A stretch of 64,000 bases of DNA from Octopus vulgaris (taxonomy: Eukaryota), in contig OX597836.1 in assembly GCA_951406725.2 (NCBI GenBank), positions 32,798,001 to 32,862,000 of the forward strand. Reading direction: 5' to 3'. The notes under the pieces were generated by a model that worked only from the letters and a program-made list of their open reading frames with translations, was not told the DNA's origin and did not search any database. The translations under genes and the position numbers were made by a program. This document shows positions 32,038 to 41,786 of the stretch, in pieces. Each line of letters starts with the position of its first letter. The stretch's first letter is position 1.

Positions 32038-32107
32038 TCAGTCTTCAGTCAAGAACCGGATCATCGTAGTAATTTCGGCTGATTAATCTTGAGATTACTA
32101 GATCCGG
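32038..32107 (-). ncRNA. Candidate rearranged (non-circularly permuted) hammerhead ribozyme
   Basis: Minus strand: CCGGATC TAGTAAT C TCAAGA ttaa TCAG cc GAA ATTACTA cgat GATCCGG t TCTTGA CTGAAGA CTGA. Stem III 7 bp, stem I 6 bp, stem II 4 bp; CTGAAGA, GAAA and an ATC triplet are intact. Confidence 0.6.
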
Positions 32108-32552
32108 CCAGCCCTCCAAGAAAAACTATATATACTTCTAATATAAGGATAAAATTTTATTAAAAAATTTTTTCAGTGGCCAGCAATATGAAAAATACCT
32201 TTTAAGGTGAAAATTATAAATACAATTATAAATAAGGGCAAAAAGAAAAAAATTTCTTTGCCACTACGCTGAAAGATAGACACTTCATCGTCTAACCACA
32301 TAAAATATTTACACTTATATTATTACACCACATGTTGAAATGAGGAAAGCAAATTATATATATATATATATATATGATTTATTTAATCTCTACAGATTTT
32401 CTATAGAAATTAGAGTCAGCACTGATTTGCTACAACATTTCATATGTGAATGCAGCTAAGTACATAAGGCACAGTATTGACATATAAGTCTTTAACATGC
32501 TTAGTAGAATATCATGGTTGCATAACCAATACAGTGTCCCTACCGGCAACTA

Positions 32553-36601: not shown

Positions 36602-38274
36602 TATCCTTTCTACTAAAATTATAAGGCCTGAAATTTTGAGGGAGGAGAGTAGTTGACTACATCGACCCTAGTGTTTCACTGGTACTTAATTTATCGACCC
36701 CATAAAGATGAAAGGCAAAGTCAACCTCGGCGGAATTTGAACTCAGAATGTAAAGACAGACAAAATGCCGCAAAGCATTTTGCCTGGAGTGCTAATGATT
36801 CTGCAATCCCATGGCCATTTGAAACTGAAGATCATCTCTACTCTTTATACATTATATCTGAACAGCCTCTCTCTCTGCAGCCATTTACTGCTCAGGTAGT
36901 TGAGCCATTAAAAGTTAATTCATGGCTCAGCACTGACCGATCATTTACCACGATCACTCAATGCTGAGCCATGGATTAGAGTCAAGCAGCCAGCCATTCA
37001 GGCAGTTCATTGGTCTCCTATTAACTCAGCCAGCAACATATCTCACATCTCTTCCTTTTCTCCTCTTCTCTCTTTCCCTGTCTCTCTCTCTCTCTCATTC
37101 AAATTTCAGAATGACAAGAATAAACAGATTTTGTTATTAAGAATGTATTAGAAATACATCAGCAACATTCATTGAAAATTATTGAAAACGCTATAAAAAG
37201 TCATCTCGCGAGATATTGTATTTCAATTATATTTTATTCTCGCATGTTTGTAAAAGCACCATTAAACATTACCTGACGATATGAATGATTCACTTACTGA
37301 CAGTTCGCTTGTCCTGACTTTAAACTATAATGACTTATACACAGAAAATGATTTGTTTCACGAAAACTAGCCAGGAACTAGCCATGCCATGTATGCTGAT
37401 GAGTAGAACAAAGCAGCAGCTGTTTTAATCACTGCATATGTTAATGCCACTTATTTCTCGGAGAATATTGATAGCCTTCACTTCTGAAACAGTCTGACTC
37501 ATCATTACCATTGTCGTCATCTTCGTCGTTGTCGTCGTCTTCATCATTCACCTTCTCTTCTCTCCTCTCCTCTTCGTCATCTCCCTTCCACTCCTCGGCT
37601 TCTGCTCTGCATGCAATCGTTAAATGTGTCTTATTTGGCCAACATTCATAAATATTTCTTCTAATTGTAAAACACTTGAGTTTTAATGAAATATCTGTGA
37701 ATGTGATTGCGGACAGTCGTTCTCTTGTCGGTTGTGTTTATGGTTGAAAGCCAGCTCTGATCAATCTTCTCTGCTGAACTCTTCCCTGTCTGACAGTATT
37801 CATTAAAAGCTTGCTCTGGGGAAAATTATTCTTGCTTCTCTTTACAACTTGTAGCCAGATAATGAAACAGAAATTGCTGAAGAGCCAAGGAAACTAAGCT
37901 TAGCCACAATTCAAATTTCTCTAAGGAATACATCAACAAGTGAAGGGGTTTTATTTTTGTTTTTATTTCTTTATTTTGATTTTGGTCTTTTATTTTTGTC
38001 ATTTGATATAAACAGCTTTAGAATTATCTGCTATTATCTGCTTGCTTCCAGTAAATGAGAGTTAAAGCTATACAGTGTTCGGGCTAAATTTGACAGTTTG
38101 CTCGAAAGGAAAAGTAAACACAATTTCCTATCCAAATATAAAAGTATTTCAAAAAATCAGAAAATGGACAATCAAATTAAGGCTGGCTGATAATAGTTTA
38201 ATCAAAGTAGCCACCGTCAGCTCCCATTACAGCCTCAAGATGGCTCTGGATCCTGGCGCATGCATTCCTCACTA

Positions 38275-40172: not shown

Positions 40173-40229
40173 CCTGTGTGTGTATATTTATAGATATATA
40201 TACATACATACATACATATAGGAAGGAAA

Positions 40230-40305
40230 GTTTCTTATCGAAGATACGTCTCGCCTTCACCTTCGAAATGTAGAGTAGATGAAACCATGGCGACTGAAGA
40301 AGGGG
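40230..40305 (+). ncRNA. Candidate rearranged (non-circularly permuted) hammerhead ribozyme
   Basis: GTTTCttATC gaaga TACGT C TCGCC ttca CCT tc GAA ATGTA gagta GATGAAAC cat GGCGA CTGAAGA AGG. Same strand order as 32038-32107 with different stem sequences; GTC triplet. Confidence 0.6.
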
Positions 40306-40523
40306 TTTTTTTTTTTGGTTTTTTTCTTTGTGTTAATTGTCCTGTACTCTATTTTTTTGTTGTTTAAAAAAATGTTCAGTTCCTTGGGTTTATGTCTATG
40401 TTTTCATTTCTCATTGTGTTCGACGGCTTTTTGGTGTCCTGTACTCATATATGCGTGTATATATACATGTAGAGGTAGGTACGTACATATATGTTTATAT
40501 ATATGCATATGTTTTATTTATTA

Positions 40524-40567
<44 letters not shown>

Positions 40568-41786
40568 TGTATGTATATATATATATGATGGGATTGTTTC
40601 TGTTTCTGTCTACCAGTCTACCAAGTTTCCATCTACCAATTCTGTCTACCAAATTCACTCATAAGGCTTTGGTCAGCCCTAGGCTACAGTCACAGACGCT
40701 TGCCCAAGGTGTCATGCAGTGGGACTGAACCCAGAACCATAACGTTGGGAAGTAAACTTGCTATCACAGGCCTCTTATCAACTCAGATATCTATATGAGT
40801 CTACAGAATGTTTAAATGAGTTAATCATGTACATACACACATGGACACACATATATACACACGCAGAGCGGTATATGTGTGTATGTGAATCTGAAAGTGT
40901 ATGTCAGTGTGTGTGTGTGTGTGTGTGTGCCTTTCATGCATGTGCCAGCATGTTCTCCATAGGAAGAGTCTTGCGCCTTGAAATCAATTATTTACGTCGG
41001 CTTTTATTGTATATCGAAACTGTTGTAACATACTCGTTATAGATTCCACTACACTTCCATTTTCCTACCTCTCTCTTTGTACATGTGGGTGTATGTGTGT
41101 ATGTGTGTGAGTGTATGTGTGTGAGTGTGTGTGAGTACACATACACACACAACACATATATGTACCTATATCTATATATATGTATTTATATATCTATCTA
41201 TCTATATATATATATATTTATATATATATACATGAGTTTATATATGTATATATATATATATCTATGTATATACATATATACACATATATGCATACATATA
41301 TATAGATACATATATATATATATATATATATACACACATGCATATATATATATATATATATATATATACATGCATATGTATCTATACCTATATGTATACA
41401 TGTATACACAATGTATATACATAATATACATACATACACACATATACACATGCATACACACATACTTATATATAACTGTATGTGCATATATGTATGTGTG
41501 TGTGTGTGTATACATATATATACATATATATACATATACACATGTGTGTGTATGTATGCATACATACGCACTTCAATCACTTCACCTCTTGTATACACCC
41601 TCACACATATAATCACACATACTTACCCACAAATTCATGCACATTCAATATATTTAATGGTTTGATACTCAAATTTAGATCTCCATTTAGTACTCGGAGG
41701 GAATCAAATTTATCTAATTAAGATACTTTTAGTAGACTTTTCTTCGTTTGCATTGTGTGAGGTTGTTGTGGGTGTTGTTATTGTAG

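Follow-up and report, generated by a model that had tools for sequence, protein, structure and literature searches.

The window, i.e. the whole 64-kb stretch of Octopus vulgaris DNA analysed here, contains two matches to a hammerhead descriptor with the block order S-G-C (cleavage block, GAAA block, CUGAnGA block), at 40246–40303 on the + strand and at 32097–32039 on the − strand. The + strand site lies in a truncated copy of a repeat element denoted family 2 and its counterpart, copy 1, in a second repeat denoted family 1 (Table 1). Read 5′ to 3′, the motif comprises the 5′ strand of stem II, an interaction strand, the cleavage block, a linker, the 3′ strand of stem II followed by GAAA and stem III, the second interaction strand, and finally stem I with CUGAnGA. 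The strings quoted in the first-pass annotation were all located on the + strand by sequence inspection, and the 4-nt linker, T-rich tail and (TA)n context it described as shared by the two copies are present, the latter two flanking the window motif. TACG (40245–48) forms part of the 3′ strand of stem III, and a spacer of 16 nt separates TGTA of stem III from GGCGA of stem I.

Table 1. Positions of the motif parts and of the elements carrying them, in window coordinates
Feature	Position	Strand	Basis or remark
Copy 1: the four-block motif as carried by an unrelated ORF-less family of ~840 bp (family 1)	32042..32113	-	Upstream stem II strand 32113–32109; predicted cut after C32093
5′-truncated copy, 3′ 315 bp of the 824-bp ORF-less Penelope-like element (family 2)	40220..40534	+	92% identity to tandem unit L095
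Stem II, 5′ strand, G10.1 first; upstream, detached from CUGAAGA	40222..40226	+	Pairs with 40260–64; covaries across clusters
Stem I–II interaction helix, 5′ strand	40230..40239	+	Pairs with 40278–85; neighbours match the SGC/CSG alignments of Eckert et al.
Stem III, 3′ strand, with U16.1 (40249) and C17 (40250)	40245..40250	+	Predicted cut between 40250 and 40251
Stem I, 3′ strand, TCGCC	40251..40255	+	Pairs with 40289–93
Linker TTCA, 4 nt, stem I to stem II	40256..40259	+	Sequence; placed like the short linker in Eckert SGC/CSG
Stem II, 3′ strand CCTTC (40260–64), core GAAA (40265–68) directly after	40260..40268	+	Cluster covariation, family alignment
Stem III, 5′ strand, including TGTA (40269–72)	40268..40272	+	Family alignment
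Interaction helix, 3′ strand	40278..40285	+	Alignment columns partly fixed by the copy-collecting anchor
Stem I, 5′ strand GGCGA (40289–93), and core CUGAAGA (40294–300)	40289..40300	+	Conserved stem II not after A9
AGGG (AGG 40301–03), stem II strand of the first-pass annotation	40301..40304	+	Weaker alternative register, family 2 only
(TA)n target microsatellite at the fixed 3′ end of the element	40535..40586	.	Sequence

Conservation of the motif and its carrier elements

The window motif is a real feature and a conserved hammerhead-type RNA. Across 59 aligned rows of family 2 each of the core bases CUGAnGA, GAAA and UH is kept in 56–59 rows, and each pair between 40222–26 and 40260–64 is held in 58–59. 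Stems I and III adjoin the core and show the natural covariation claimed for them by the first-pass annotation: the stem I pair 40255/40289 is C–G in 36, U–A in 20 and U·G in 3 of the 59 rows (a few places being counted twice). The window copy itself carries a G·U wobble at the stem III pair 40248/40269, which is G–C in 54 of the 59 rows. The core, stems I and III, and a helix II closing on GAAA with G10.1–C11.1, as typical of the hammerhead class, are all found, helix II by way of the upstream strand. None of the circular types I, II and III applies, as the block order is not CGS, GSC or SCG and no Rfam match was obtained.

The two descriptor matches compare with 0.007 expected. Among 300 block-wise dinucleotide shuffles, one hit occurred in 2 and two hits in none. 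Rfam listed no hammerhead among 20 matches at the motif, and for the whole window the 150 listed of 421 matches were miRNA-like matches to simple repeats only. Nested folding did not recover the structure (z = +1.0), which is expected because the structure is a double pseudoknot. A third match to the GAAA...CUGAUGA pattern, at 37361–37402 of the window, has no stems by eye and is probably due to chance.

The carriers are dispersed repeats whose copies were grouped by k-mer sharing. The family 2 unit measures 824 bp and is devoid of RT or nuclease ORFs; one 23-mer from it has 1,256 exact matches in the genome (control 0), a lower bound on the number of copies, and a repeat search yielded 2,626 candidates. 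Copies have a common 3′ end about 285 nt past the predicted cut, where they run into (TA)n, whereas the 5′ end varies. Full units frequently follow a partial repeat of their 3′ end, and some junctions carry an inverted 3′ end. With its fixed 3′ end, 5′ truncation, partial tandem and inverted pLTRs and microsatellite targets, family 2 is a non-autonomous Penelope-like element (PLE). Family 1 is represented by 5,551 exact matches to one 24-mer (control 0). In agreement with the first-pass annotation, which regarded the two window copies as unrelated in sequence, blastn found simple-repeat similarity only between families 1 and 2 among the matches listed. Overall, the proposal made there of a conserved RNA class borne by mobile elements is supported, the RNA being of hammerhead type and non-circularly permuted.

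Genome-wide, the pattern CGAAA-N14-30-CTGAWGA occurs 51,092 times vs 6,115 in the control. This count overstates the motif: by eye, about 56 of 100 listed hits have the four-block form, and about 30 are canonical type I hammerheads with an incidental upstream CGAAA (six checked). A very abundant canonical type I family with an extra base between A9 and G10.1 was observed on contig C1 (L129, L138, L144, L146, L149 and L152); it often follows (AAT)n and agrees with family 1 in its stem II strands. Minimal type I hammerheads of another repeat family lie near the Penelope-like elements (L034, L036, L275 and L276).

Position of the stem II partner

Six block permutations of the hammerhead were described by Eckert et al. 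2023, type SGC stemming from metatranscriptomes and, in the text available, none from the genome of a known organism (PMC10085705). The S-G-C order is thereby already published. In their alignments a fourth helix pairs the strand that follows stem II with the one that precedes stem I, and the pairing of 40230–39 with 40278–85, read by the first-pass annotation as a distal extension of stem III, corresponds to this stem I–II interaction helix. The same annotation drew stem II with the AGG that follows CUGAAGA, across a 2-nt bulge. This downstream register was compared with an upstream one using 128 candidates from the collected loci, for which stems I and III were the sole selection criterion; at 80% identity these formed 19 clusters. 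The downstream register was scored with a bulge of 0–3 nt allowed, and the upstream strand lies 18–27 nt before the cut. The clusters are related, hence not independent in the covariation statistics.

An upstream stem II of at least 4 bp was found in 12 of the 19 clusters vs 6.4 expected, and its score was reached by 0/2000 partner permutations and 0/2000 shuffles; after clustering at 70% identity it was still supported (9/15, 0/2000). The seven cluster representatives without a 4-bp upstream stem include several single decayed or truncated copies. At least six distinct pairs of upstream and pre-GAAA strands occur across the families, nearly all opening with G10.1–C11.1. Conversely, a downstream register of at least 3 bp was found in 4 of the 19 clusters vs 4.4 by chance, with 806/2000 permutations matching its score. 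A stem II 5′ strand directly after CUGAnGA, as in type SGC, is therefore at chance level across the clusters, even if a weak downstream register can be drawn in both window families (in family 1, for 38 of 50 copies). In family 2 the duplex energy is −4.6 kcal/mol for the upstream strand vs −0.8 to −1.4 kcal/mol for AGGG. The strand at 40222–26 lies four bases outside the interval 40230..40305 treated by the first-pass annotation. It gives five contiguous pairs from a canonical G10.1–C11.1, so that the “two extra pyrimidines before GAAA” noted there are an artefact of the wrong partner. Since the conserved stem II partner lies upstream and not after CUGAAGA, the backbone would be broken between A9 and G10.1; the full break is suggested by the covariation. 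The earlier topology needs this one correction, which makes the motif more unusual.

Two alternatives bear on this assignment. The RNA could be a plain type SGC hammerhead, with stem II formed by the bases after CUGAAGA, a bulge of 1–2 pyrimidines before GAAA, and the upstream strand serving as a folding aid or inhibitor only. A downstream register of 3–5 bp is indeed available in both window families, this reading retains the backbone continuity of all the tested permutations given in PMC10085705, and two spider Naiad consensus ends (PMC8557442) appear by eye as S-G-C with a different stem II and no clear upstream strand. Still, such a fold is unlikely: besides its chance-level frequency, the downstream register is absent in the metagenome contig L355, the Naiad family, L136/L140, L142, L159 and L172, stem II would be weaker by 3–4 kcal/mol, and a bulge is required between 11.1 and G12, which is not seen in the alignments of Eckert et al. 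that were inspected. A core completed in trans, or as a dimer of two tandem units, appears far less probable still. Lunse et al. in 2017 are said to have proposed dimer or trans action for minimal Penelope hammerheads. Tandem units are common and PLE hammerheads are reported to work as dimers; against this, the four helices all close within about 80 nt of a single unit, and a strand swap between identical units would not restore the A9–G10.1 link.

Two further observations concern the upstream region. In two families (L002/L095; L136, L140 and L174) a pyrimidine tract ending in CAG, resembling a splice acceptor, directly precedes the upstream stem II strand; it lies 5′ of the equivalent of window position 40222, and the window copy begins at that AG. 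Another four-block-like family (L157 and L185) has an upstream stem II with the identical internal mismatch in both loci.

5′ ends of copies around the predicted cut

The 5′ ends of family 2 copies were placed relative to the predicted bond in 90 of the first 100 matches listed on contig C1, collected with an anchor 27 nt past the bond and regardless of 5′ extent. Thirty-one of the 90 ends fall at 0 to +25 vs one at −1 to −26, with eight at −4 to −100 (p about 1e-8). Most lie 3–12 nt past the bond rather than on it, 24 of the 31 being at +3 to +12. Three copies share an identical junction, and merging them leaves 29 vs 1. With the anchor moved to +150, in a sample that overlaps the first, 8 of 50 ends fall at 0 to +25, one at −1 to −26 and 13 over +26 to +150; family 2 thus shows not just a step but a local peak. 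For family 1 the corresponding numbers are 21 vs 3 of 50 (p 1.4e-4), some at position 0: two copies end at exactly 0, and two more do if chance TA matches are discounted. In this family the pile-up is independent of the downstream register, comprising 6 of 12 copies unable to form the downstream stem vs 17 of 38 able to do so, where some tails may have mutated after insertion. The old Naiad family gave 2 vs 5 of 30, two of the five lying at −2 and being TA-ambiguous. Overall, about a third to two-fifths of the sampled copies start just past the predicted cut, and the predicted cleavage site after C40250 put forward in the first-pass annotation is indirectly supported by this accumulation immediately 3′ of the bond. 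Words of the stretch also occur in 14 contig sets possibly derived from RNA; the four that were aligned to it consisted of contigs and showed no start or end sites.

Such ends could also arise if the structure were conserved for another purpose, e.g. to bind a protein or to signal folding, with the pile-up marking a transcription start or a stop of the reverse transcriptase. According to the available text of PMC8557442, pLTRs of Penelope-like elements contain transcription starts; many ends lie at +8 to +12, inside the 3′ strand of stem II; and the step is not seen in the Naiad family. Moreover, Frangieh et al. 2024 found cleavage by a PLE hammerhead to be unnecessary in vitro, with no RNA reads ending at the site. 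A PLE hammerhead is also reported to have been assisted by protein (PMC11167929). Yet every core base is retained across divergent families, 5′ ends halt at one and the same bond in two families that share neither sequence nor tail length, and helices of equal strength further 3′ collect few 5′ ends, so that we regard a non-cutting structure as improbable. A mere chance match within a repeat-rich, AT-rich window, for which the empty Rfam and nested-folding results might be cited, is hardly credible given two hits against 0.007 expected, thousands of copies, and covariation between families as well as in the independent contig L355; the shuffles, the cluster covariation and the 5′-end step together refute it.

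In our judgement the locus is likely to hold a hammerhead-type motif close to the 3′ terminus of a Penelope-like element that is 824 bp long and ORF-less; stem II would be completed by the upstream strand 40222–26, and self-cleavage after C40250 is predicted. Mechanistically, a transcript running through a tandem array of a 3′ part followed by a full unit would fold once CUGAAGA has been made, then cut itself; as CUGAAGA is the last block, the core could assemble only after its transcription. The 3′ cleavage product might then be copied into (TA)n by target-primed reverse transcription, the enzyme being supplied in trans by an autonomous Penelope-like element in the case of family 2. If cDNA synthesis ran almost to the cut end, ending at most a few bases from it, copies would start between 0 and about +12, and longer copies would derive from uncut RNA. 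Speculatively, departure of the upstream stem II strand with the 5′ product would disfavour re-ligation. The window copy itself, with its stem III wobble, is perhaps never transcribed.

Relation to known hammerheads and Naiad elements

Type SGC, i.e. HRIMA-1 and its variants (PMC10085705), likewise has the S-G-C order, a short I–II linker, four helices including the interaction helix and all core bases in the published alignments. Its stem II and interaction strands come after CUGAnGA, whereas in the window motif both are moved to the 5′ end; block C, treated as indivisible in the consulted text of Eckert et al., is thereby split. Type SGC is known from metatranscriptomes and its cleavage has been tested, in contrast to the thousands of animal genomic copies of the window motif, for which cleavage is predicted. 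Type CSG from the same source has the same cyclic strand order, with stem II and interaction strands leading directly into the cleavage block and a similar A/U-rich linker, but in CSG the sequence stem I–CUGAnGA–stem II is continuous at the 5′ end, while stem I–CUGAnGA is located at the 3′ end of the window motif. The predicted fold corresponds to that of SGC/CSG with a new opening, which separates A9 from G10.1, and an order with this break falls outside the six permutations as presented in PMC10085705. The upstream-stem-II motif is a new variant of the hammerhead ribozyme class, for which self-cleavage is predicted.

The A9/G10.1 link is known to accept inserts. An extra A is found there in a type I family of this genome, a tested SGC-3 has an extra U (PMC10085705), and the (+) hammerhead of CChMVd carries an extra A10 (PMC3705267); as described there, the latter shows that the junction tolerates interruption, with one base inserted in a continuous canonical strand and not a break. 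A full break is more than a one-base insert and counts against activity, and a cursory literature search with one phrase found no precedent for activity with it. The open-access papers searched contained no description of hammerheads of type SGC or with a split core from animal genomes or Naiads. Non-LTR retrozymes and non-autonomous PLE derivatives (bioRxiv 10.64898/2026.07.22.740005) are likewise ORF-less tandem hammerhead units, thought, in the accessible part of that work, to be mobilised by PLEs. They carry a type I hammerhead in every tandem repeat, a feature lacking from the units studied here, whereas the present families are mostly dispersed and 5′-truncated, with partial tandems and a non-circular fold.

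As described in the available text of PMC8557442, members of the Naiad clade have (TA)n targets, tandem and inverted pLTRs and 5′ truncation like family 2. According to the same text (Craig et al. 2021), canonical hammerheads are missing from Naiads, several families being marked 'HHR_half_core'. Naiads bear an ORF, unlike family 2, which shares the motif architecture and the (TA)n targets with them but has no DNA similarity to the Naiad copies tested (blastn). A 17-mer from a published Octopus Naiad end has 523 exact matches in this genome. Thirteen of 30 loci show the motif at 0.5–1.4 kb beyond a Naiad-like RT thumb; the Naiad copies here are decayed. On the metagenome contig L355 the motif, in which the upstream register alone pairs, follows by about 600 nt a Naiad ORF of 836 aa with CxC, DKA and RT in its translation and 32% identity to P0103. 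This one contig constitutes the computed cross-species evidence; among metagenome loci with a Naiad-like thumb the motif was found in 1 of 80 (L355), many flanks being short. The ORF features of the clade (N-terminal GIY-YIG, CxC, DKA and RT) are missing from the family 2 unit; they belong to other motif carriers only, namely L355 (CxC, DKA and RT) and L230 (a decayed Naiad-like RT). The check suggested in the first-pass annotation, whether the extended consensus terminates a Penelope-like RT plus GIY-YIG ORF, was negative for family 2, whose 824-bp unit is ORF-less; in other families the motif does end Naiad ORFs.

Published consensus sequences, 47 Naiad 3′ ends and one further passage (PMC8557442), were read by eye. 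The four-block form was recognised in ten ends: Clytia-3, three Acropora, Morbakka-2, Pomphorhynchus, two Octopus, Euprymna and one crustacean. The crustacean consensus is possibly that of Darwinula. Four nematode ends (Naiad-3_Nbra, Hcon, Hpol and Asuum) fit CSG by eye, a form represented in the available part of Eckert et al. by just two metagenome sequences (PMC10085705). Apart from the two spider ends mentioned above, the remaining ends, including all bivalve and hemichordate ones, showed no such motif by eye in the displayed text. The motif probably originated in Naiads.

The young intact PLE of this genome was considered as a mover of family 2 and rejected: its nuclease is C-terminal, and it neither carries such a motif nor resembles family 2 at the DNA level. 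This element (L269–L272; G000 C1: 150.94 Mb, 90.85 Mb and 202.2 Mb; C6: 17.95 Mb) encodes an 811-aa RT with C-terminal GIY-YIG and a separate, overlapping upstream frame of 460–495 aa; in many copies of the element the frame is complete. Its pLTR showed no CUGAnGA hammerhead. When the decayed thumb was used in a word-indexed protein search, no match was returned, and Pfam did not recognise the Naiad RT fragments. A separate Penelope-like remnant (L044:2251-2736) ends in a stop and contains CxxC; its match to GIY-YIG is weak (E 0.0036).

Taken together, we lean, with caution, towards a broader view: a seventh natural hammerhead permutation, its core broken between A9 and G10.1, that would act as a ribozyme here and in several animal phyla, its genomic copies numbering tens of thousands, would represent the missing hammerhead of many Naiads, and by its cut would fix the 5′ terminus of the RNA retrotransposed in vivo. 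If true, the three-block rule of Eckert et al. would no longer limit hammerhead architecture, and non-circular permutations would move from obscure metatranscriptome RNAs to high-copy animal chromosomes. The motif may also answer the apparent absence of hammerheads in Naiads. The 5′ ends of its copies would moreover provide fossil evidence on the role of hammerheads in Penelope-like elements, where in vitro work found cleavage dispensable.
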